Shown here: positions 25,772-36,747 of the stretch, piece after piece | Numbering within the stretch: the first letter of the stretch is position 1 | How the letters are laid out: the number at the start of each line of letters is the position of its first letter | NCBI GenBank assembly: GCA_963782055.1 | Contig: CAWAIF010000003.1 | Span: 3,392,001 to 3,456,000 of the forward strand | Length of the DNA stretch: 64,000 bases | Origin: an uncultured delta proteobacterium | GTDB lineage: Bacteria > Myxococcota_A > Polyangia > Polyangiales > Polyangiaceae | Direction of reading: 5' to 3' | The notes under the pieces: model-generated | What the model was told of the DNA's origin: nothing | Database searches by the model: none | Seen by the model: the letters and a program-made list of their open reading frames with translations, nothing else | Translations under genes and position numbers: made by a program

Positions 25772-27262
25772 CTACCCGGCGGGCAAGCCGTGGTAGTAAG
25801 GCGAAGCTTCTCCGGGCTGATAGCTCAGTTGGTAGAGCTGCGGACTTTTAATCCGTAGGTCGCGGGTTCGAGTCCCGCTCGGCCCACCACGGGAAACCCG
25901 CCCCGGAGTCGTCGCGGAGGCCAGGGCGGAAGAGGGCGGAGCGCCCCCCATTGGCACGCCCATTGGCACGGGCCTCCGGCCCCCGGTGCCGCCCTTCGGG
26001 TGAAGTTCGGGGATCGCTTCGTCCAGCGGAGCGAACCATCCGAGGCCGAGCTCCGCGGCGGTCCGGCTCGCGCGCTTGTAGCGGTAGATCATCACCGACG
26101 ACTTGTGCCCGGTGCGGTCGGTCACCCACGCTTCCGTGCGCCCGCTGGCGAGGGCGAGGGTCACGAACGAGCCGCGCAGGTCGTGGGCACGAAGGAGCAG
26201 GCGCCCGGCCTTCGGCTTCGTGAGCTCCGGCCGGTCGACGCCGGCCAGGGCGAGCCCTTCGCGTAGGTGGTGCGCGTAGTCCCCACGATCGCCCAGGAGC
26301 GCCTTGGGGAAGATGGCTGGCACCTTCGTAGCCTTCGCCCCGCGGAGCTTCTTCCAGGCGCCCAGGGCGCGCACCACGTCCTCGCCCAGCGCCCACGAGC
26401 GCGGGTCCTCGGTCTTGTTGGTGTCGAGCCGCACGACGCCGCGCACAAGGTCCACGTCCGCCCACGTCAGGCCGAGAGCTTCGCCGGTGCGCATGCCCTC
26501 CCTGGCCAGGAAGCCGAAGAAGAGGCGGCGGGCTAGAGGCACCTCGCGGCACTGCATGAGGGCGAGGTCCTCGCTCGGGTAGACGTAGGACTTCGCCGCG
26601 TCGCTCCGGTTCTTCGGGAGCCAGCCTTGGGGGATCGGGATGTCCTGCCGGAGCCGAAGCGGGTAGCGCCCGTACACCAGCAGCTTGCGGATCGCCTGCG
26701 CGTACTGGCGCCGCGCCGCCGCCGTGCGCGTCGTCTCGGGCAGGTGTCCCATGAGGTGATCGCAGTCGTCCAGGGTGACGCTGGCCACCGGGCGCGCGCC
26801 GAAGGTGGTCCCGTCCGGCATGCGCACCTTGTTCAGCCAGGCGAAGATCCGCGCATCGTCCTTGCTGCTCTTCTTCACGCGCACGTGGTCCGGGTAGGAC
26901 TTCGCGAGCTCGCCGGAGCTCCACGCGGCGGCGAGCTCCTCCACGGTCATCCCGTCCTTGCGGAGCCCGCCGGCGCCGGAGAGCCCGGGCGCCTTGCCGG
27001 CGAGGATCACGGCGGCCGCCTTCCGGATGGCGGCGAAGCCCTCCGCGTCGGCGGCCGCCGCTTCCTGGATCAGCCTCGGGAGCACCCCCGTGTGGCCCGC
27101 GTCCCGGAGGCGGTCGACGAGTGCGCCGATCGCGTCCTTCCGCTTGAGGGCCTCCGCCTCCGTCTTGCACGACGTCAGGAGGGCGCCCTTGCGCTGCTTC
27201 CCGGAGCCGATGACGTACCGGACGAAGTACCCGCCGGGCGTGGTGGTGAGGGTGCCGGACAT
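25772..27262 (-). CDS. int: Tyrosine recombinase/integrase; C-terminus reads through attL antisense to the tRNA
   Basis: GMRTGEALGLTWADVD (R), NKT (K), HDLR (HxxR), TGHKSSVMIYRY (H, Y). Confidence 0.93.
   Translation of the reverse strand: MSGTLTTTPGGYFVRYVIGSGKQRKGALLTSCKTEAEALKRKDAIGALVDRLRDAGHTGVLPRLIQEAAAADAEGFAAIRKAAAVILAGKAPGLSGAGGLRKDGMTVEELAAAWSSGELAKSYPDHVRVKKSSKDDARIFAWLNKVRMPDGTTFGARPVASVTLDDCDHLMGHLPETTRTAAARRQYAQAIRKLLVYGRYPLRLRQDIPIPQGWLPKNRSDAAKSYVYPSEDLALMQCREVPLARRLFFGFLAREGMRTGEALGLTWADVDLVRGVVRLDTNKTEDPRSWALGEDVVRALGAWKKLRGAKATKVPAIFPKALLGDRGDYAHHLREGLALAGVDRPELTKPKAGRLLLRAHDLRGSFVTLALASGRTEAWVTDRTGHKSSVMIYRYKRASRTAAELGLGWFAPLDEAIPELHPKGGTGGRRPVPMGVPMGGAPPSSALASATTPGRVSRGGPSGTRTRDLRIKSPQLYQLSYQPGEASPYYHGLPAG
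25814..25889 (+). tRNA. tRNA-Lys (anticodon TTT)
   Basis: 76-nt cloverleaf: GGGCTGA acceptor, D-arm TAGCTCAGTTGGTAGAGC, anticodon loop CTTTTAA, GGTTCGAGTCC T-loop, encoded CCA. Confidence 0.97.
25845..25891 (+). repeat. attL core (47 bp, 3' half of tRNA-Lys)
   Basis: CTTTTAATCCGTAGGTCGCGGGTTCGAGTCCCGCTCGGCCCACCACG identical to 36074-36120. Confidence 0.95.
25948..25970. repeat. Putative integrase arm-type sites, left end
   Basis: Tandem CCATTGGCACG x2; reverse-complement tandem pair at 35962-35983. Confidence 0.75.
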
Positions 27263-27297
27263 GCCGAAAGACTACTCCGCCTCGGCCTCGCGGGCGT

Positions 27298-27783
27298 TCA
27301 CTTGCGGACCCGGCGCTTGGCGGGCTTCGCCGTGGGCTCCACGGCGATAGAGAGGGACGCGACGGCGTTGCGGACGAGCATCCGAAGCACCGCGCTCGTC
27401 GGCATCTCGTAGTGACGCGCGAGCGCCTCCAAGCGCGCCACGTCCACGTCACCCACACGCATCCGCACCACCTGCCCCTTGGTCTCCAATTCGGTCTGCA
27501 TCGGCTTCACCCTGATCCTTCCTGACGGGTCCGCTTCGATTGTAGCCACAACGGGGCGACTGTCAACGGCCGAGCCCATGAGTGCCGCCACGTCCACACC
27601 CAACACCGCGGCGACCCTGGCCAGCCATTCCACGGTGGGCGTGGCCTCGGCCCTCGTCACCCGGTAGATCTGCGCGCTGCCCACGTCGGCCGCCACGGAC
27701 AGTTGGTAGAGGGACAGCCCCCGCTCGGCCGCAACGGCCTTGATGTTCGCTGCGATGCGTCGGCGGAGCTCCCGGTCGGTCAT
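27298..27783 (-). CDS. XRE-HTH regulator in frame with a ribbon-helix-helix domain (RHH possibly also made alone from 27510/27501)
   Basis: RIAANIKAVAAERGLSLYQLS...IYRVTRAEATPTVEWLARVAAVLGV (XRE); QVVRMRVGDVDVARLEALARHYEMPTSAVLRMLV (RHH/CopG-like). Confidence 0.75.
   Translation of the reverse strand: MTDRELRRRIAANIKAVAAERGLSLYQLSVAADVGSAQIYRVTRAEATPTVEWLARVAAVLGVDVAALMGSAVDSRPVVATIEADPSGRIRVKPMQTELETKGQVVRMRVGDVDVARLEALARHYEMPTSAVLRMLVRNAVASLSIAVEPTAKPAKRRVRK
27539..27566 (-). promoter_or_regulatory. sigma70-type promoter inside the HTH ORF, facing RHH-int
   Basis: TTGACA-N16-TACAAT on minus strand; overlapped by TGTAGCCACA (27541-27550); AGGAAGGA RBS before GTG 27510. Confidence 0.65.
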
Positions 27784-27805
27784 CCCCCGATGGTACCGGG
27801 GAGGC

Positions 27806-27848
27806 TTGCGTTTCTCTCGATCGCCTCTTACGATCGCGTGTAGCTACA
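27806..27848 (+). promoter_or_regulatory. sigma70-type promoter plus palindromic operator for the rightward operon
   Basis: TTGCGT-N17-TACGAT (27806-27834), then perfect palindrome TGTAGCTACA (27839-27848); AAGGAGA RBS before ATG 27909. Confidence 0.6.
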
Positions 27849-27908
27849 GAAACGAAACGGCCCGGCGAGGCGCAAACCTCCCGGGCCAGGCCACCAAGGA
27901 GATTACCC

Positions 27909-28241
27909 ATGGCGACGACAAGCAATGTGGACGTAGTGCGAGCGCTCGGCAAGCTGGACGACGCGATCATCGACGGCAAGCGGCTCCTGCGGGCCGAACG
28001 CATCGGGCAGCTACGAGCCCTCGCGTACGAGGCGGTGGGCATGGCTCGCCACGACACGCGCACCGGCGAGGGCGTAGGCCCCGACGATGCGGACGTGGTG
28101 TTTTTGATGTACGGCCCCGAAGGGCTGGACATGGTGGAGCGCGACGTGTTCATCAGGCACGCCAGGGCGGCGCTGGCGCCCCCGGTGCCCCTGTCCCCCT
28201 GCGACGTGGCCCGCGTCGCCCTGCGCCGGGTGCCGCGATGA
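27909..28241 (+). CDS. Element hypothetical protein
   Basis: 110-aa ORF with strong RBS; ATGA-coupled to the next ORF. Confidence 0.7.
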   Translation: MATTSNVDVVRALGKLDDAIIDGKRLLRAERIGQLRALAYEAVGMARHDTRTGEGVGPDDADVVFLMYGPEGLDMVERDVFIRHARAALAPPVPLSPCDVARVALRRVPR

Positions 28242-28474
28242 TCGGCTACGAGGCGGCGGGCTCGGTCTGCGGATCATGTGGCCACCACCACCGGACGATC
28301 GCCACGGCGTACGCCTGCGCGGACGCGCACGGGCGGGCCATCGGGCGCGCCTACCCGAGCACGTTCCCCACGCGGGCGTACAGCGATCGGGTCGTCTGCC
28401 GTCTAGACGGCGAGCCGCTGTCGGAAGCGGAGCAGGACGAGCTTGTGCAGGCGGCCGAAGCCGCGGACGAGTAG
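28238..28474 (+). CDS. Small putative metal-binding protein
   Basis: 78 aa; CGSCGHHHRT....AC motif; ATGA overlap. Confidence 0.65.
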   Translation: MIGYEAAGSVCGSCGHHHRTIATAYACADAHGRAIGRAYPSTFPTRAYSDRVVCRLDGEPLSEAEQDELVQAAEAADE

Positions 28475-28481
28475 CACCGCA

Positions 28482-28832
28482 TCACCTCGCAGTACGAGAG
28501 GGCTCCGCGGCTTCGGCTGCGGGGCCCTTCGCTTTGGCCCGCAGCTCCCGCACCTCTTGAAGTAGCTCCGTGCACCGCGCCTGCGTGCGCGTGAGGGCGT
28601 CGGCCACCGCGGACCGCTCCCCGGCGAGCTTGCCGATCGCTTCGTACACCAGCGCGTCAAGCATCTCGGCGCGAAGCTCCGCGGTCCAGTCGCGCGCGTC
28701 CTGCGCGATGCGGAGCTCCCCGTACTGGCGCCGCCCGGTCGCGAGCCGATCCGCAATCATGCAGAGTACACGCACCTCGTCCGGGCCCAGCGTCGCCACG
28801 ATGGCGCCCAGGCGATCCGCAGGGCTCACCAC
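28482..28832 (-). CDS. Phage-type hypothetical protein
   Basis: GRRQYGEL...RDW..E...EMLDALVY helical motif plus C-terminal coiled coil. Confidence 0.6.
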   Translation of the reverse strand: MVSPADRLGAIVATLGPDEVRVLCMIADRLATGRRQYGELRIAQDARDWTAELRAEMLDALVYEAIGKLAGERSAVADALTRTQARCTELLQEVRELRAKAKGPAAEAAEPSRTAR

Positions 28833-29068
28833 GGGGACTCGTCCTCGCGCTGCCTCTGGAAGTAGTCCGGCGAGTGCGGCTTCGCGATGTCATGAGCCGC
28901 GGCAAGGCGCCCGGCCTCGTCCAGCCGCAGCGTGGGCATGTCGCGCGGGCGCTCGGGGCTTGGCGCGCCCGCGTCGCGCGGGACGATCGTCCCGTCATCG
29001 ATCAACGCGGCGCGGAGCTCGCGCGCGAAGGCCCGCCGTGCGCTGGAGTGCGTCGTCAGATCACCCAT
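28826..29068 (-). CDS. Element hypothetical protein
   Basis: 80-aa ORF overlapping its neighbours in the minus-strand chain. Confidence 0.5.
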   Translation of the reverse strand: MGDLTTHSSARRAFARELRAALIDDGTIVPRDAGAPSPERPRDMPTLRLDEAGRLAAAHDIAKPHSPDYFQRQREDESPW

Positions 29069-29361
29069 GCTTTGTCTCCGCGCATGCGCACCACGACCCG
29101 AGCGGACTGGACGAGGCCTCGGTCGTGAACCGTGACGAACCGGCCGTGCCCCAGCCGAACTGTGGCGGTGCCGTCGTCGCAGTGCACGACCGTGCCGTCG
29201 AGCGCAGAAAGCGGCGGGTGGGCGCGCCGCAGAAAAGGAGGCCTTCCCCTCTGCGGCGCCGAGAGGGGAGCCAGCCCTCGCGCGCGGGAGGTGGATGGCC
29301 TCCCGCGGCCCGAGGCGAGGCGGCGGGATGGCGCCGCCGCATCGCCTACTACATCCTTCAC
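29056..29361 (-). CDS. Element hypothetical protein (frame uncertain)
   Basis: GTGA coupling at 29358-29361; beta-rich C-terminal half. Confidence 0.35.
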   Translation of the reverse strand: MKDVVGDAAAPSRRLASGRGRPSTSRARGLAPLSAPQRGRPPFLRRAHPPLSALDGTVVHCDDGTATVRLGHGRFVTVHDRGLVQSARVVVRMRGDKAWVI

Positions 29362-29777
29362 GGCGCCCGCCACAGATCGGGCGCGGCCTCTTCCGGTGCG
29401 GGGCGGACCATGGTGGCCACCTCGTACTTCGCGATCGAGGTTGTGATCGGGAGCATGATCAGCGCCCACCGATGCGTCCAGGGAAGGGGGCCGAAGTCTG
29501 GAGCGTCCCGGGCGATGATCGCTTCGACGTTCCCGCGCATCGTGCGCCCGGCGATCTCCGCGCCCCCGTCGTCGTCGCCCGGCCACATGACCACCGTGTC
29601 ATCCACCCGCGAGAGGAAGGCATCGCGGTCCGCGAAGGCGACATGGCGCGCACGGAAGACCATGTGCCCGCCGACCGTCGCGCCGCCGAGGGCTACGAAG
29701 TGATCGGTGGGGCAGTCGGCGAGCCCGGCGCGCAGCGCATCGATCAGCGCGTCGACGGTGGCGTCGCCGGTGCTCAC
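29358..29777 (-). CDS. Element hypothetical protein
   Basis: 139-aa ORF, GTGA-coupled at both ends. Confidence 0.6.
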   Translation of the reverse strand: MSTGDATVDALIDALRAGLADCPTDHFVALGGATVGGHMVFRARHVAFADRDAFLSRVDDTVVMWPGDDDGGAEIAGRTMRGNVEAIIARDAPDFGPLPWTHRWALIMLPITTSIAKYEVATMVRPAPEEAAPDLWRAP

Positions 29778-30124
29778 GACTCACCCGCGGCGAGGGCGAG
29801 ACGCGCGACCTTCGCCGCGTCTTCGGCCGACTGCGCCCGCACGCTGGCCAGGTGTCGACGCGCCTGCTCCGGCGTCATGTTCAGCTCGTATCGCCCGTGG
29901 ATGAAGGTCACGCCGGACCCCTGCGCGGACATGCCCATGCGCGCGGCGATGCGCGCGGCTTCGGGGCTCTTCGTCGAAGGCTTGCCGACTCCGCGAGCGA
30001 GGATCTGCCGGGCCTGCTCCCGCGTGATCGGGCCCAGCTCGTAGCGCCCGCCCTTGAAGCTCGCGACTGCGGGCGCCTCGCCGTGGAAGACGCCCATCCT
30101 GAGGTTGATCTCGTTCTTTGTCAT
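29774..30124 (-). CDS. Element hypothetical protein with an internal repeat
   Basis: 116 aa; GRYEL..(I/M)T.EQAR..LA occurs twice; ATGA/GTGA coupling. Confidence 0.65.
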   Translation of the reverse strand: MTKNEINLRMGVFHGEAPAVASFKGGRYELGPITREQARQILARGVGKPSTKSPEAARIAARMGMSAQGSGVTFIHGRYELNMTPEQARRHLASVRAQSAEDAAKVARLALAAGES

Positions 30125-30933
30125 CTCAGCAACTCCCTCTCCGCGCTGGTGCGCTTGAGATCCAAGGCCGCAACCTCGGAGTCATCCGCCGGCGCCTGGC
30201 GCCTCCCGCGCGGCGGCGCGGGGGACGCGGGGGCGCGTGCAGCCTTTTCCGCATCGATCTGCGCGGCGCGCCTCTTCGCGATGAGCGCGGCCTCAGCGTC
30301 GCGGGCCGCGGCGTACCCATCGACGCGGCACACGCGCGAGCGCAGCGACTCTCCGCGAGCGCGCACGATCTCGGGGTCGATCGAAGCGTGGAGCCGAACG
30401 ACTGCGCGCTCCACGGCTCGCTCGAGCTCCGCCACGGAGTCGCCGAACTCGAGCGGACCGATGTCGCCGCGACCGACGCGGGCGAGCAAGCTCTCCGCCA
30501 GCGGGCCCGCGTGGTCGGATTCGTACTGCGTGAACGCCGGCGACCCGTGCATCGCGACCCGCTCGTCGCCGTGCGCCACCGCTGCGATCAGGTGCCAGGA
30601 CGAGAATTCGCCGCCGAGCTCCTCGCGAGCGCGCACGATGACCGCGCCGGCGGTCCGGATGACCTCCGCCCAGCTCGTACGCTTGCCGTCGCACGTGGCG
30701 ACGGCCTCGCGCCAGTCGGAGACGAGCGCGAGGATCTCCGCTTCCTGCCGCGCGCGGGCGGCGGCGGCGGCGGCCTCGGCGTCTTTGATCCGGGCGGAGT
30801 GATTGCTCGTCATCGCGAGCCGCGCACCCCGGTGATCGTGGTCGAGTGCGGCGAGCTCGTCCAGGCACGAGCGGGTGAGGGCGTCGAGCGCGCGAGCGCG
30901 TTCGGCGTGCGAGGTGTGGGTCACGTCGGTCAT
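30121..30933 (-). CDS. Element hypothetical helical or coiled-coil protein
   Basis: 270 aa; ATGA coupling at both ends. Confidence 0.6.
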   Translation of the reverse strand: MTDVTHTSHAERARALDALTRSCLDELAALDHDHRGARLAMTSNHSARIKDAEAAAAAARARQEAEILALVSDWREAVATCDGKRTSWAEVIRTAGAVIVRAREELGGEFSSWHLIAAVAHGDERVAMHGSPAFTQYESDHAGPLAESLLARVGRGDIGPLEFGDSVAELERAVERAVVRLHASIDPEIVRARGESLRSRVCRVDGYAAARDAEAALIAKRRAAQIDAEKAARAPASPAPPRGRRQAPADDSEVAALDLKRTSAERELLR

Positions 30934-31181
30934 GCGGACACCCTGCTCCCGTCGGAGTCTACAGTTGTGGAATTCGTCGGAGGCGCGAGCCACGACGCGG
31001 GCGCGATGGCGTACACCTCGGCGAGGCGAACGGCGACGCGGAGCCCGGGCAGTCGCGTCCCCGCGAGAAGGGAGTAGAGGGTCGCGCGCTTGATCCGTGT
31101 GTGGTGCAGGACGAGCGTCAAGCCGTCGCGCGCGACCACGGCGGCGAGCGCCTCACGGCCTGCACTTCGCGCGGGGGTCAC
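30930..31181 (-). CDS. Small XRE/Cro-like HTH protein
   Basis: TRIKRATLYSLLAGTRLPGLRVAVRLAEVYAIAPASW. Confidence 0.65.
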   Translation of the reverse strand: MTPARSAGREALAAVVARDGLTLVLHHTRIKRATLYSLLAGTRLPGLRVAVRLAEVYAIAPASWLAPPTNSTTVDSDGSRVSA

Positions 31182-31342
31182 GGCTCGTTGCCCTCCGGCG
31201 CGGGCGCCGGCGCGCGCGAGGGCTCCGCGGCGGGGCGCGGGGCTCCGCACGTGGGGCACCGCCCCTTCTTGCGGGCGAGCTCCGCCAGTAGGCGCCTCGC
31301 GAGCGACGCCGCCGGCGAGCTCGGGGGGTCGGGCGCCCTCAC
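31178..31342 (-). CDS. Small protein with a CPTC zinc-knuckle motif
   Basis: GTG at 31342 overlaps TGA 31339-31341; LARRLLAELARKKGRCPTCG. Confidence 0.4.
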   Translation of the reverse strand: MRAPDPPSSPAASLARRLLAELARKKGRCPTCGAPRPAAEPSRAPAPAPEGNEP

Positions 31343-31927
31343 GGCTTCATGCCCTCCAGCGCCGCAGCAACGGCCCCCATCGCCTCCGGGTAAGGCTCGA
31401 GCGCATCGCCGATCGCGACCTGGATCCTCGCAAACGTGGGCGTGCTCAAGAATCCGCCGGTCGAGCGCGGCGCCGTCGATCTTGTCCAGGATGGCGAGCG
31501 ATGCGCAGCACGAAGACACGAGCCGCGCCTTGGCGGAGGGCGGGAGGCCCGCGGCTCCCTTCGCGCGCAGCTCACCAAGCAAACCCGCGATCGTCTGCCG
31601 GAGCTCGCGCGCCACCGCGTCGACGTCGAGCTCGTCGCCCGCGTCGCCCCCGGCGGCGACGGGATGGTCACCCTCCGAGGCGCGTACCGGCGGGGCCTGG
31701 ACGGCCCCAGGAAGCGCCGGGCCGCACGCCTCGTCCCAGGACGCTACCGGGATGGCGTAAGCGGCCTCCAGGCGCGCCCTGGCAGCCGCGCCGGGGCGGG
31801 AGCGCCCCTTTACCCAGTGGTGTGCCGAGGTGACGGAAGCGCCGGCCGCCGTCGCAATCTCCTCCAGGGTGAGGCCAAGCCGGGAGAGCAGATCGGCGCC
31901 GGGGCTCATCTTCGCGTGTCGGGTCAT
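31339..31927 (-). pseudogene. XRE-HTH protein with helical C-terminus, apparent +1 frameshift near 31441
   Basis: N-terminal HTH (LGLTLEEIATAAGASVTSAHHWVKGRSRPG); removing one base gives ...RRILEHPTFARIQVAIGDALEPYPEAMGAVAAALEGMKP* and restores GTGA coupling. Confidence 0.55.
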
Positions 31928-32060
31928 GTAGTTTCACCTGTGAAGGTTTCAGATTTTCGGGGCGGAAAATTACAAGCAGAGCACTTGTCGGTGTTGCGCT
32001 CCCTATGACTGTTGAAGGGGGGTCATGGTCACCAGGGCGGGCCACGGCGGCGCAGTCGAA

Positions 32061-32186
32061 GCGTGGGCGTGTGGGCAACGTGGGTACCCACGCCGTGTGC
32101 CCACCCGTCCACGCCCCAAGCGTGGGCGTGGGCACGCAGGGGGGGTATGGGGGGGAGTTGCCCACGCCCACGCTCTTGCCCACGGG
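32061..32186. other. Putative replication origin (iteron-like GTGGGC/GCCCAC cluster)
   Basis: Many GTGGG(C) units in both orientations; 16-bp inverted repeat 32119-32134 / 32159-32174; palindrome CGTGGGTACCCACG; directly downstream of the primase-helicase. Confidence 0.65.
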
Positions 32187-32191
32187 CAGGG

Positions 32192-34288
32192 TCAGAGACA
32201 CCTTGTCACCTCGTCGGGCAGGCGCGTCCGGTCGATGGTCAACGCCGTGCTGCCCTTGTGCTTGGCCTGGAGCAGCGCCGGGCCGAGGCAGGCCACCGCC
32301 GGTGCCCACCGCCGAGAGTTGTCCGCCACGGTGGCGAGCCGCGCCTCCCGGACGCTGCAGCCGTCGTGAGCCAGGACGTACGCGGCGACGGCGCCGGCGT
32401 CGGCGGTGATCTTCGCGACCTTCGCCTGATCCTTCCGGGCCGCCTTCTCCTCGCGTTCGGCGGCGCGCCGGTCCTGCGCCTCGGCCCACGCCGACACGAT
32501 GCGACCGCCGCGGTCCTCCGGCTCCCGGTAGGAGAAACCGGTGAAGCGCAAGGGCGACCAGGACGCGCCGGTCGCGCGGCCCTTCGCGGTCGCGAAGATG
32601 ACGTCCACCCCCTGCCCTTCGACGAAGGTCTCCGACACCTTGAGCAGCATCGAAACGCTGTCCGCGCTGAACTCGATCTCGCCGGATTCCTTGGCCGTGC
32701 CGACCAGCACGTCCGGGTTGCGCAGGCGGCGGCGGATCGGCGCGCCGTGCTCGTCGGCGTCGAAGTCGAGCCCGGCCGAGGTGATCAGCCTGTCGGTGTC
32801 GTACTGCGCACGCCCGATGCTGGAGACGACCAGCACCACCGCGCCGAGGCGCACCGCGACGTCACGGGCGAAGTACGCGGCCCGCCCGATACGCTCCCGC
32901 AGGTCGAGCGCCCGACCGTCGCGGGTCTCCTCCCCGATGATCTGCAAGAAGTCGAGCACGACCAGGAACGGACGCGAGCCAGGCCCTTTTGCCTCCGGGT
33001 ACTTCGCGCGCATCGCCTCGGCCACGCGGCCGAGCTCCGACACGGGCCACCCCTGCGGCCTGGAGAAAACGAAGTGCAGCGGGAGCCCTTCGAGGCGAGG
33101 CGCGACGGCGCGGATGCTCTCCAGGTACTTCGGCCCGGCCTGCCCGGTGTAGACCTTCGACCAGGGCACGCGGGCTTCCTCCCCGAGCAGCCGTAGGGCG
33201 ACCTGGAGCTCCTCCAGCTCCAGGGTGATGTACGCGGCGGGGAAGCCTGCGCGCGCCCCGTGTAGCGCGACCTGGAGCCCGAGCGCGGTCTTTCCAAGAC
33301 CGGTCCCGGCGTTCAGGAAGTGCACGCCCGACCAGAGTCCGCCGCCGAAGTGCGGGAGCAGGCTCGGCCACGGGAGTGGGATCGGCTTCTCGTCGCCGTT
33401 GGCCCGGCGTTCCGCGCGGACCAGCGCGTCCGGGATGATCTCCTCCAGCGTGACCAGCGCCGGCGGCGGTGCCTCGTCCAGGTACGCGCGCCCGGTCGGG
33501 GGGTGCGGCTCGCACTCGTCGGTCTCGCCCTCCAGCCCGACGAGCTGCTCGAGCGTGCCGCCGGCGGCGAGCAGGTCGGAGACGTCCTTGTGTGGCGAGG
33601 GGCACTCGAGCACCGACACCGAAAGGGCCGCGCCATCGAGCGAGGCGGCCACCTGGCGCGCATGGTCGCGCCCCGGCGTGTCGGCGTCGGCGATGATGAT
33701 GACGGCGCGTCCTGCGAGCACCTGGCGAGCGTGTGTGGCAACGAAGCGCCATTTGCCCGCGCCCATGGCGGCAGTCGTCGCGGTGTAGCCCTTGGCGGCG
33801 AGCGCGTCGGCGTCCTTCTCGCCTTCGACGATGTACACCGGCCGGTCGCCGTCATCCTCGAGCAGCTCGGGAAGGCGGTAGAGCACGCGCTCCACGTCGC
33901 CCAGCGAATGGATCCAACCCCCGGCGCCGTCCGGCTTGCGCTGGCGGAAGTCCTTCGGCTCGTAGCGCACGGCCTGGTAGAGCAACTCGCCGGCCGCGTT
34001 GCGGTAGTCGTACGTCTTGACAATCTGCCGAATCTGCGAAACCCGAGCGGCACCATGCGACGTGCCGCACTTGCAGCTCCCGTGCATCCGATGGGCGTAG
34101 GTCGGCGGCGTCGCGTTGCTCGCGTCGAGGCTGCCCGCGTGCTCGTCGCTTGTACAATGCACGTAGTCACCATCGGCCGACGTGAAGCCGGCGCAGCGCT
34201 TGCCCTTTCCGCGCGGGTCGCCTTCGGCGCCGTCGCAGATCGGGCAACGGTTCGTCTTCGTGTGCCGCAGCCTTGCCGGAACGCTCAT
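32192..34288 (-). CDS. Primase-helicase (Zn-binding, TOPRIM and DnaB-like SF4 helicase domains)
   Basis: CPIC...C...C N-terminus; IVEGEKDADAL and IADADTPG (TOPRIM); AGTGLGKT Walker A, VVLDFLQII, KESGEIEFSAD (DnaB-type). Confidence 0.88.
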   Translation of the reverse strand: MSVPARLRHTKTNRCPICDGAEGDPRGKGKRCAGFTSADGDYVHCTSDEHAGSLDASNATPPTYAHRMHGSCKCGTSHGAARVSQIRQIVKTYDYRNAAGELLYQAVRYEPKDFRQRKPDGAGGWIHSLGDVERVLYRLPELLEDDGDRPVYIVEGEKDADALAAKGYTATTAAMGAGKWRFVATHARQVLAGRAVIIIADADTPGRDHARQVAASLDGAALSVSVLECPSPHKDVSDLLAAGGTLEQLVGLEGETDECEPHPPTGRAYLDEAPPPALVTLEEIIPDALVRAERRANGDEKPIPLPWPSLLPHFGGGLWSGVHFLNAGTGLGKTALGLQVALHGARAGFPAAYITLELEELQVALRLLGEEARVPWSKVYTGQAGPKYLESIRAVAPRLEGLPLHFVFSRPQGWPVSELGRVAEAMRAKYPEAKGPGSRPFLVVLDFLQIIGEETRDGRALDLRERIGRAAYFARDVAVRLGAVVLVVSSIGRAQYDTDRLITSAGLDFDADEHGAPIRRRLRNPDVLVGTAKESGEIEFSADSVSMLLKVSETFVEGQGVDVIFATAKGRATGASWSPLRFTGFSYREPEDRGGRIVSAWAEAQDRRAAEREEKAARKDQAKVAKITADAGAVAAYVLAHDGCSVREARLATVADNSRRWAPAVACLGPALLQAKHKGSTALTIDRTRLPDEVTRCL

Positions 34289-34473
34289 GCGGCCCCCGCG
34301 CACGGCACGCACAGCACGACGACGGGCCGGTCCTCGGCGTCGACCACAAGCGCCCGGTGCGCAGGGCACAGGCGCTCGCCGCAGGCGGCGCACCGGCCAC
34401 CCTGCAGTAGCGCCAGGCGGGCCACGGGCGCGCGGAGAGAGGCAGCATGGGCACGGCGGGCGGCGCGGTTCAT
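34285..34473 (-). CDS. Small Zn-finger protein (degenerate endonuclease VII/HNH-like)
   Basis: LQGGRCAACG...LVVD...LCVPC; ATGA coupling at both ends. Confidence 0.6.
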   Translation of the reverse strand: MNRAARRAHAASLRAPVARLALLQGGRCAACGERLCPAHRALVVDAEDRPVVVLCVPCAGAA

Positions 34474-34808
34474 CGGCTCGCCCCCAGGCGGCGGAGGGCG
34501 CGCTCTACGTCGGCCTCGCCCTCCACGGGCGCCACCACCCGCGGGCCGCGGGCGCGGAGCCACGCGTCGACGGAGGCGCGTGGGGCGAGCCACCGGCGGC
34601 CGACGCGGACCGCGCCGCCGATCTCCCCTCGCCGGCAAAGGCTGTAGAGTACACGTTTCGACGCGGGCACCTCTCGCGCCACGTCGACGAGCTCGTCGCG
34701 CGGGGACAGGAGGGCGGCGACGCGCGGAGCGAGGGCGGCGGCGAGCGCGTCGAGTGCGACGGCGGCCGGGTCGGACGCGGGCGGCGGAGGAGCGGCGCGG
34801 AGGCTCAT
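34470..34808 (-). CDS. Excisionase-like winged-HTH protein
   Basis: SKRVLYSLCRRGEIGGAVRVGRRWLAPRASVDAWL (Xis/HTH_17 pattern). Confidence 0.75.
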   Translation of the reverse strand: MSLRAAPPPPASDPAAVALDALAAALAPRVAALLSPRDELVDVAREVPASKRVLYSLCRRGEIGGAVRVGRRWLAPRASVDAWLRARGPRVVAPVEGEADVERALRRLGASR

Positions 34809-35026
34809 CTCGCCCTCGCGAGGTGGATCACCTGCGCCCCCGGTCGGCGCGCGATGGCGGCGGCCGCCGTCTCGATCCAGTAGCGGGTCGTCGGTCGCGC
34901 GTCCCCGGTGAGGTAGGAGCGCAGCGTGGACGGGACGACGGCGAGCTCGCGGGCGGCGGCGGCGGTGCCCAGGCGCCGGGCGAGCTGCACGACGTCGCGG
35001 GCGGGCTCGTAGGTGGTGGCATGCAT
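34805..35026 (-). CDS. Small Cro-like HTH protein
   Basis: LGTAAAARELAVVPSTLRSYLTG; ATGA coupling to the xis-like gene. Confidence 0.65.
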   Translation of the reverse strand: MHATTYEPARDVVQLARRLGTAAAARELAVVPSTLRSYLTGDARPTTRYWIETAAAAIARRPGAQVIHLARAR

Positions 35027-35060
35027 CGACGCGGAGCATGCATCCGCGTACCCACGTAGG

Positions 35061-35089
35061 GGGGGCGTCCGCGGAGGACGCCCCCTTTT
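35061..35089. terminator. GC-rich hairpin inside the element
   Basis: GGGGGCGTCC-gcgga-GGACGCCCCC-TTTT, immediately after the stop of 35088..35753. Confidence 0.55.
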
Positions 35090-35753
35090 ACTCGGCGTTT
35101 TTGCGCATCTTCTGGACGCGCCGCTTCGCGTCTTCCGCCTTCACCACGACGCCAATCTCCCTGCAGACTTGCTCGAGCACGTTCCACTTGCTCAGTCCGG
35201 GGCCGGGGACGAAGGACTCCACCAGCGCGTCAGCCGACTTCAAGGTGAGCTTCTCCGCGTGCTCCGGGTAGTGCTCCGCGAACTCCAGGCGCAGGATCCG
35301 CCCGAAGGATCCGAGTTGCTGCGCAGCGCTCAAGAGGGCGGCCGCTCCCTCGCTCGGATGGTCGCTGCACTTCGCCTCGGCGGCCAGGGCTAGCGCGTGC
35401 TCCGCACACACGGCGAGCCGCGCGGCGATCGCGGTGGGGCTGTCGCCGGCCTCGGTGAACAATCGGTTCGCGGCCGCTACGACTTCGAGGGCCTCCTCCG
35501 CGTAGTCCTCGCCGCGCTCGCCCAGCGCCCGGCGGACGTAGGCGATCCTCGCCTCCAGCATGTCGAGTTGCTCCCTCGCCAGCGATGCGGTGCGGCCCCT
35601 GCTCCTCTCGTAGTTCTGCACGCGTTCCACCAGGCGCGCAGCGCGAGCCGGCGGCGGCGCGCGCGCGATCTCGTCCCGGAGCCGCTGCGCTGTCTGCTCG
35701 CGCGGTGCCCCTGTCGCGTTGCCGACATCCGCCTTCTTCGCTACTCTTCGCAT
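35088..35753 (-). CDS. Element hypothetical helical protein
   Basis: 221-aa ORF upstream of the replication module. Confidence 0.6.
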   Translation of the reverse strand: MRRVAKKADVGNATGAPREQTAQRLRDEIARAPPPARAARLVERVQNYERSRGRTASLAREQLDMLEARIAYVRRALGERGEDYAEEALEVVAAANRLFTEAGDSPTAIAARLAVCAEHALALAAEAKCSDHPSEGAAALLSAAQQLGSFGRILRLEFAEHYPEHAEKLTLKSADALVESFVPGPGLSKWNVLEQVCREIGVVVKAEDAKRRVQKMRKNAE

Positions 35754-35820
35754 GTCGAACCTCGTCCGTTCGTCCTGCGCCAGGGGGCTTGCCGGCCCGC
35801 CTGGCGCTTCCTTTTGGAGC

Positions 35821-36073
35821 CTACGTCTTCCGTCGCGCGTCAGCCAACACGGCCACCGTGGCCCGCTTCGTGCTCCGCCGCACTTCGATCAAGGCGAGGG
35901 CGCGCGCGTCGTCGCCCTCGTCCAGGGCGAGCTTGATCGCCACCACGAGGGCGTCGTCTGCCGTGCCAATGGCGTGCCAATGGGGGTCCCGAGGCGTCCC
36001 CACCGTCCCGACGGTAGGCGAAAAAGCCCGAGTAAACGGCACTTCGGCACCTGCCGGTACACCCTCACTTCGG
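35821..36073 (-). other. Displaced 3' segment of the integrase gene (83 codons plus stop), in frame with int after excision
   Basis: Open frame from the attR core to TAG 35821, in the same phase that int uses across attL. Confidence 0.75.
35962..35983. repeat. Putative integrase arm-type sites, right end
   Basis: CGTGCCAATGG x2, reverse complement of the left-end repeats. Confidence 0.75.
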
Positions 36074-36120
36074 CTTTTAATCCGTAGGTCGCGGGTTCGA
36101 GTCCCGCTCGGCCCACCACG
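36074..36120 (+). repeat. attR core (47-bp duplicate of the tRNA-Lys 3' half)
   Basis: Identical to 25845-25891; the tRNA 5' half is absent here. Confidence 0.95.
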
Positions 36121-36123
36121 CGC

Positions 36124-36747
36124 TCACTTGAACCCGGTCAAGTGCACGACGTACCACTCGCCGCGCCAGGAGATCATCGAGCTGACCCCCAGCACGCGCG
36201 GGCGGCCGTCCACCTCGTAGCGCAGGCGCGTGCCGTAGACGCGCCAGTAGCCGAGCTTGTTGCCCTCCTCGCCGGGGTCCACCCACCGCGCCAGATCGGG
36301 CACGTCGATGCCCACCAGCTTCGCCTCGGTGGCGTCGCGCCCGAGCTTGGCGTGCGCGGCGTGGATGTCGCGCGCGAAGTTGGCGACGAGGCGGTGCTTC
36401 CAGTCGGAGTCGGGGTAGGGGATGGCCTTGACCTGCTCGTACGCCGTCTTCGGGAAGAAGAACGCCATCGCGCGCGCGGGGTCGTCGTTGACGACGCCCT
36501 CCCAGAGCGCCTCGACGCGCGCGTGGAACGCCGGCGCGGCGGCGGACGGGCGCTCGCGCGTCTGCGGCAACACCCCCGGATCCACGTCCGGCGCCGCGTC
36601 GTGCGCGGCGTCCGCGACGCCCGCCTCCCGGACCGCCGGCGGGGGCATCGGTGACACGGAGTCGGCCCCCGCCTGGCCGTGCCAGGTGGGTGGGTCCCCG
36701 CGGGAGCAACCCACGAGAATCACGGCGAGAAAGAAATGGAAACGCAT
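36124..36747 (-). CDS. Hypothetical lipoprotein
   Basis: MRFHFFLAVILVGC lipobox; DAA linker; globular C-terminal domain. Confidence 0.75.
   Translation of the reverse strand: MRFHFFLAVILVGCSRGDPPTWHGQAGADSVSPMPPPAVREAGVADAAHDAAPDVDPGVLPQTRERPSAAAPAFHARVEALWEGVVNDDPARAMAFFFPKTAYEQVKAIPYPDSDWKHRLVANFARDIHAAHAKLGRDATEAKLVGIDVPDLARWVDPGEEGNKLGYWRVYGTRLRYEVDGRPRVLGVSSMISWRGEWYVVHLTGFK

Follow-up and report, generated by a model that had tools for sequence, protein, structure and literature searches.

The integrase of a small myxobacterial element carries the element's attachment site, attP, inside its own gene. The element, of about 10.2 kb, occupies a tRNA-Lys gene in a 64,000-nucleotide window of DNA from an uncultured delta proteobacterium of the Polyangiaceae (assembly GCA_963782055.1, contig CAWAIF010000003.1, positions 3,392,001 to 3,456,000); all positions below are those of this window. 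As read from the DNA alone, the tyrosine integrase gene (int) is laid out over attP as catalytic domain, arm repeats, core, arm repeats and hairpin module. Since int spans attP past the catalytic domain, integration would keep the catalytic core and swap the last 83 residues for 23 host-encoded ones. The original prediction, made from a first look at this stretch, had placed attP within int, and this was confirmed, the core lying in the int reading frame beyond the catalytic tyrosine; each of its figures (47-bp core, 496 and 556 aa, 83 and 23 residues, stop at 35821) was reproduced. Comparison with relatives shows that the fusion of integrase and hairpin is under selection across the family and that the linker between them is not.

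The att core is a perfect 47-bp repeat (Table 1) that can be extended on neither side, runs from the anticodon loop of tRNA-Lys(TTT) to 2 nt beyond the tRNA end, and has only two full-length copies in the genome. It is read in frame by int (27262->25772) after residue 457, beginning 62 codons past the catalytic Y395, and the protein possesses the R-K-H-R-H/W-Y catalytic set and the fold of a tyrosine recombinase. In-silico joining of the ends yields a protein of 556 aa, composed of 473 shared and 83 new residues and ending at the stop codon 35821-35823. Because about half of the sampled frame starts stay open for at least 83 codons by chance (46% in the element, 52% in the window), an open 83-codon frame is no evidence by itself, and since open frames are common in DNA of 72% GC, the case must rest on relatives. 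GC content by codon position is of the coding pattern in the last 45 tail codons (0.76/0.47/0.93; int core, 0.69/0.51/0.95), and residues 400-457 of int lack this pattern (0.74/0.68/0.81).

The frame across attP in related elements

At E 1e-40 the integrase family was found in 198 of the 383 genomes of the host's family, the host genome included. The survey set consisted of 60 regions of at most 20 kb around high-scoring matches, picked for long contigs among 150 listed, together with the best 80 of 211 metagenome loci, three genome loci and one phage record; 13 loci were viral, and the three strong ones among them were analysed. For the tail profile, 18 out of 120 homologues were picked by eye, with the element's own tail left out. 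A tRNA-derived stretch was detectable downstream of 108 of 139 distinct integrases, and 97 of the 108 read into it (58 antisense, the present one included, 25 sense into a 3' fragment and 14 sense into the 5' half), the remaining 11 stopping before it. An attP within int thereby turns from a curiosity of two phages into the usual design of a large integrase family.

When attP was rebuilt in the 26 other elements with both att copies, a tail match of at least 15 bits was obtained in 21, and the match lay in the integrase frame in 20 cases, in the second frame in one and in the third in none. The frame was open from core to hairpin, as an integrase-linker-hairpin fusion, in 19 of the 26; L066 is open with a tail score of 14.8-16.5, and L047 has a tail that is recognizable by look, without a profile score. 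The tRNA targets of two-ended elements are of at least seven types, including Lys, three Leu, Ser, Phe and Gln, and occur in three geometries. The hairpin starts 63 to 162 residues past the catalytic domain, so the length is variable and the frame is kept. Conservation of the tail among relatives, which the original prediction had put forward as its check, is thus evident in the post-attP frame.

The fused gene also occurs intact in nature: in 5 of 86 loci (L123, L139, L141, L163, L176) integrase, core and tail stand in one frame with no whole tRNA. L176, a viral contig of 15,001 bp, has a terminal repeat of 127 nt, which points to a very small circular tailed-phage genome of 14.9 kb; it carries head, terminase, tape-measure and helicase genes besides the intact tailed integrase, and the design is therefore common to small phages too. 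Virus Rctr16k, the best phage match, has a short Int without a tail. Within the host genome, three more elements (tRNA-Gly, tRNA-Ser and a tRNA-Thr remnant) rebuild to in-frame tails.

In the tRNA-Gly(CCC) element (G000:C3:3576586-3587096, about 10.4 kb) the integrase is distant (27% identity) and the repeat is 21 bp long; across its rebuilt attP the integrase frame runs on into a tail that shares the terminal motif. The tRNA-Ser(GCT) element has its ends on two contigs (G000:C3:1809-3151 and C2:26129-26440) linked by a 24-bp repeat, which suggests how contigs C2 and C3 join; the joined ends restore a canonical tail in frame. The tRNA-Thr element (G000:C3:4707920-4718053) is bounded by a perfect 47-bp repeat and retains a short remnant of its integrase; its tail variant is UVR-like by eye, without a Pfam match.

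A helical segment had been predicted in the excised-form tail and proposed as a functional module. The segment is borne out as a folded hairpin (AlphaFold2 predicted local distance difference test, pLDDT, about 90), and the proposed module holds for the last ~45 of the 83 residues, a conserved hairpin, and fails for the first ~38, which are simply read-through of attP arm DNA. Modelled alone, the tail forms two helices with a mean pLDDT of 86. The AlphaFold2 model of the intact L176 protein comprises an N-terminal three-strand-plus-helix domain, a two-helix insert, core-binding and catalytic domains, a linker and the hairpin; the core is well folded, the linker disordered (pLDDT 31-37) and the hairpin at about 90, and on structure comparison the model resembles lambda Int, XerA and Tn1549 Int. 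Searches of Pfam, PHROGs and the PDB by sequence or fold returned no family for the tail, only short ankyrin-like matches; Foldseek gave no fold match at E 0.001, the best VIA match (Z 5.9) stood among generic hairpins, and the best Atlas value was 0.89. A word-index search with the 73-aa tail open reading frame (ORF) retrieved only itself. The UVR (UvrB/C) helical hairpin had no Pfam match in 31 tails or in the tRNA-Thr variant, with a best fold Z of 5.9. The idea that the tail arose by copying of the N-terminal two-helix insert was rejected (best score 7.7 bits). The 45 conserved residues of the hairpin make up a well-delimited module, so far unstudied, with a putative role in directionality.

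The two-helix insert after the N-terminal domain is a possible partner of the tail: among full-start genes it was scored in 56 of 69 read-through integrases vs. 6 of 14 that stop before att, in about two lineages. Integrases that tend to miss it while stopping before att include L063, L086, L088, L115, L133, L146, L153, L039 and L040. In a tight clade of near-complete genomes (L053, L068, L093 and kin) no tRNA-derived stretch follows int and tail-like frames lie nearby, several of them in tandem in L093.

Several observations weigh against a conserved, functional tail, in the family or in this element. Two of the 26 rebuilt tails are broken (L064 and L132), three elements (L036, L056, L062) showed no tail near the core on rebuilding, in L072 the tail sits behind a stop, and some integrase clades stop before att without any fusion; the counts moreover overstate independence, because the elements are related. 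The element's own tail is divergent: against the first profile it ranked fifth among 95,581 genome segments, at 15.8 bits and E 0.25, and against a broader profile from which it was left out it had 3.7 bits, which 96 of 1997 shuffles also attained. Its putative place in the family depends on a subfamily that was itself retrieved with this tail as the query; there, two rebuilds with a partner repeat are out of frame (L221, L227) and three unclear. No similarity to the Mx8 tail was found, so function cannot be transferred from that phage. In the assembled contigs of one soil run (share 0.07) no core-to-core joint of a circle was seen, in data too thin to be informative.

Searching with the own tail gave matches in 18 of 382 other genomes; by eye, 16 of 20 loci were judged real tails of a distinct subfamily, five of them directly behind 43-45-nt antisense tRNA fragments. 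The best match (57% identity) is the end of an intact integrase gene of another Int clade (L215), and four members rebuild in frame with a tyrosine integrase (L225, L230, G184 and G306, the last on a 15-bp repeat). The nearest integrase kin bear another tail variant, and the module therefore seems to have been exchanged between clades. At L227:435-3400, two different tail subfamilies surround one integrase in a tandem layout, a possible route for tail exchange.

Arm-type repeats and an inverted attP segment

The 10-mer CCATTGGCAC has five copies in the genome, four of which flank the element's own att core. In the nearest relatives the arm-repeat periods are swapped between the two sides and the tRNA is read in sense, and in the tree the present integrase is the sole antisense row in a clade of 14 (12 sense, one unassigned; SH-aLRT 91, quick search, unstarred). 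L075 shares the tRNA-Lys core, and the reverse complement of the own tail-side arm aligns to its int-side arm with a score of 48, as compared with 16.0 ± 2.3 for shuffles, of which 0 of 300 reach 48; same-orientation arm comparisons were at shuffle level (33 and 160 of 300), and the other inverted comparison was non-significant (58 of 300). When the 236 bp between the outer repeats are turned back in silico, the frame is open over 556 aa, and the core and tail-side repeats are then read as they are in the kin. A flip of this kind also separates L036 from L051, sisters in the tree with 99% support, L036 being without a tail match.

The comparison shows that the segment between the outer arm repeats was inverted in the element's own lineage. 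Before the inversion int was tRNA-distal and read the tRNA in sense; after it, int is tRNA-proximal and antisense-reading, with the frame kept. As inversion between inverted repeats preserves length anyway, retention of the frame is no proof of selection; the lack of stops in either orientation of the 236-bp segment lends it modest support. An inverted attP means that the orientation of int relative to the tRNA is changeable through a single event within the gene. We also entertain, as something of a long shot, that the arm-core-arm segment still inverts, as a cassette within the coding sequence, through recombination between the inverted arm repeats in the circle. Both states would encode a full 556-aa tailed integrase, and the state would set the insertion direction, the host-encoded end and whether the tail and replication genes follow the tRNA promoter. 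If so, together with core and tail exchange, the family would have a general route to retarget among tRNA genes with the catalytic domain untouched.

Function of the tail and competing explanations

C-terminal segments control tyrosine recombinases via contacts in trans, as reported for XerA and Cre. The tail is very probably a real part of the free-form enzyme, and the hairpin on its disordered tether of 60-160 residues may serve as a protein-contact module favouring assembly of the attP x attB complex. The tailed, circle-form enzyme would integrate; the tail-less integrated form would be a poor integrator, yet able to excise with the Xis-like HTH_17 protein, as for Mx8. To go by the title of a 2003 paper by Tojo and Komano, the C-terminal segment of Mx8 Int is reportedly dispensable for excision. 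A tail-switched integrase with a contact-module hairpin is, on balance, our best overall explanation, and it seems rather likely that the tail biases direction or activity in the proposed way. If tailed enzymes indeed integrate one way only, they would be self-contained integration tools for many tRNA targets and for Sorangium-type hosts.

It is unlikely, in our judgement, that the basic end of the tail is instead a degradation or remodelling tag for a protease or unfoldase, such that free Int is short-lived or the product complex dismantled and integration stabilises the enzyme. There is precedent in mycobacteriophage BPs, where attP lies inside the repressor gene and integration removes an ssrA-like tag (PMC4557955). 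In the present family a VxxL-type motif, mostly 7-12 residues from the end and followed by basic residues, occurs in 114 of 146 tails, and confidence in the full-length L176 model is lowest in its last helix. The final residue, however, is mostly R, S, K, P or G (R in 57 of 146, A in 8 of 146), so that the free-form tails do not end in the di-alanine type of an ssrA-like tag. A tag would also not need a conserved two-helix hairpin, which L139, L141 and L046 keep while missing the terminal motif. A likeness of that motif to the alphaproteobacterial SspB tether was rejected; the host SspB ends in a different motif.

That the orphaned tail is (also) translated by itself after integration, as an independent small protein, e.g. 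a directionality factor, with the fusion secondary, appears improbable. Gene callers do annotate stand-alone ORFs: the tail profile matches 631 clusters at E<=1e-10, a few being long repeat proteins, and the best 150 of these are nearly all short ORFs with the module at their end, some being integrase ends. Here, an in-frame GTG at 36042 opens the 73-aa ORF, and two subfamily members are out of frame with their own Int. In L039, whose short integrase ends ahead of att, a tail-like frame (L039:8038-8214) nonetheless follows tRNA-Leu directly and would be either a relic or a stand-alone form; the L039 integrase itself ends in a motif resembling the tail's last motif. An independent gene, however, would need no int frame, yet the frames stand at 20:1:0. 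No start is conserved, 6 of 21 tails lack any ATG, GTG or TTG between core and hairpin, a start with a Shine-Dalgarno-like word is present in 4 of 21, and many annotated starts of the short ORFs (best 150 of 631 clusters) fall in tRNA-derived codons. Hundreds of short 'hypothetical proteins' beside tRNA fragments are explained as severed integrase tails.

We hold it to be very improbable that the arrangement is an expression switch, in which the overlap serves to let the int transcript of the circle run on into the genes for excisionase and replication, with the tail merely carrying ribosomes over attP. All genes from 35753 to the primase-helicase are indeed on the int strand and after the tail in the circle, and the next gene follows closely behind int in L176 and Mx8; here, however, the next start lies 67 nt beyond the tail stop, and carriage of ribosomes requires no conserved fold. 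Neutral read-through in GC-rich DNA, with the tail functionless or the own copy decaying, would fit open frames at 72% GC, a linker that is not conserved and the low score of the own tail on the main profile, but it is the least probable alternative, being largely refuted for the family by the frame bias, the hairpin conserved behind variable linkers and the intact genes in nature, and opposed in the own copy by the coding GC pattern, the intact catalytic residues and the perfect core repeats.

The element and its known counterparts

The best explanation of the element, which extends from the tRNA-Lys anticodon loop to 36120, is an integrative, satellite-like element in tRNA-Lys of a Polyangiaceae-type myxobacterium; its named relatives are Polyangiaceae and Labilithrix. 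Pfam and PHROGs, applied to 15 element ORFs, named the integrase, a repressor-like helix-turn-helix (HTH) protein, an excisionase-like HTH_17 protein, two weaker HTH proteins and a primase-helicase; nine of the 15 have no PHROG family, the tail not counted. These searches revealed no structural or virion gene among the 15, which fits the earlier description of the element as capsid-less. The stop codon of the flanking host gene (36124-36126) lies 3 nt from the far core in the tail frame, so that read-through of this stop would append the orphan tail to the host protein; with odds of one in three, coincidence is explanation enough. Five short, low-depth contigs from a soil run, possibly the source sample, match element DNA within 27460-34016 with zero differences.

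Table 1. Features of the element and its target in the window
Feature	Position	Strand	Basis or remark
tRNA-Lys(TTT)	25814..25889	+	target gene; 3' part contributed by element
att core copy within tRNA-Lys	25845..25891	+	read antisense and in frame by int
att core copy, far end	36074..36120	+	displaced fragment of tRNA 3' end
Tyrosine integrase, integrated form, 496 aa	25772..27262	-	PF00589 E 4e-13; R258, K283, H360, R363, H386, Y395 present
23 host-encoded C-terminal residues and stop	25772..25843	-	antisense to tRNA 5' half and DNA upstream of tRNA
83-codon tail, fused to int in circle only	35821..36072	-	~38 linker residues over attP arm DNA, then module
Conserved helical hairpin, basic end (VxxL..RR type)	35824..35961	-	profile comparison, AlphaFold2
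Arm-type repeat pair, CCATTGGCAC x2, 12-bp period	25948..25969	+	inside int; one end of inverted segment; putative arm sites
Inverted arm-type repeat pair, 11-bp period	35963..35983	-	just before hairpin; other end of inverted segment
Cro/C1-type HTH repressor-like gene	27298..27783	-	directly upstream of int; Pfam/PHROGs
Toprim primase and DnaB-like helicase	32192..34288	-	Pfam/PHROGs
HTH_17 excisionase-like gene, candidate directionality factor	34470..34808	-	HTH_17 E 1.7e-8; phrog_66
221-aa ORF, no known family	35088..35753	-	first gene behind tail; downstream of int in circle
Terminator-like hairpin	35790..35806	+	faces tail from element interior; 1 found vs. 0.5 expected, weak

By gene content alone, the element resembles satellites of the phage-inducible chromosomal island (PICI) type, with which it shares a size of ~10 kb, a tRNA site, an integrase, a repressor, an excisionase-like gene and a primase-helicase, with no virion genes in the 15 ORFs; unlike PICIs, it has no packaging or capsid-size gene that we found and no helper was identified. 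With lambda-type integrases the family shares the N-terminal three-strand-plus-helix domain and paired repeats on both sides of the core, but it has the extra two-helix insert, and its arm repeats and core are translated into protein.

Archaeal suicidal integrases (SSV1, pTN3, pT26-2) also have att inside int, tRNA targets and a proposed exchange of gene parts; their int is split between Int(N) and the catalytic Int(C), which is regarded as inactivating (PMC8371274), whereas in the present integrase all catalytic residues precede the core. In BPs, integration likewise removes the C-terminal segment of a protein whose gene spans attP, there a repressor with an ssrA-like tag (PMC4557955) and here an integrase with a folded hairpin.

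The closest counterpart is Mx8, together with Mx9. According to PMC6070905, attP of Mx8 lies in the 3' part of int, and integration gives the gene a new 3' end; Int is thereby altered in specificity and efficiency but is not inactivated, where the original prediction had spoken of lowered activity. The Islander account (PMC4383910) likewise has the Mx8 and SSV integrases extend across attP. As in Mx8 Int (IntP), attP lies in int and a long element-encoded C-terminus is swapped for a short host-encoded one (here 83 vs. 23), and the cores are homologous within the same phylum (hhalign 98.6%, 26% identity over 277 columns; no match to Mx8 by tblastn at E 1e-3). The earlier claim that the element uses the same switch as Mx8 therefore stands for the architecture only, the Mx8 tail (one sequence compared) having no detectable similarity to the module (probability 0.2%). 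Mx8 is a 49.5-kb phage, the present element small and without structural genes found, and unlike Mx8 its family uses many different tRNA genes as targets, occurs in three geometries and includes an attP segment that is inverted. The passages found in PMC8138268 and bioRxiv 10.64898/2026.09.14.751636 do not mention this arrangement, and in mostly open literature, in main texts and with the primary Mx8 papers outside, we found no description of the integrase family, the tail or an attP inversion within int. The principle has been known since Mx8; what is new is a widespread, unrelated tail module and the inversion of attP within the gene.

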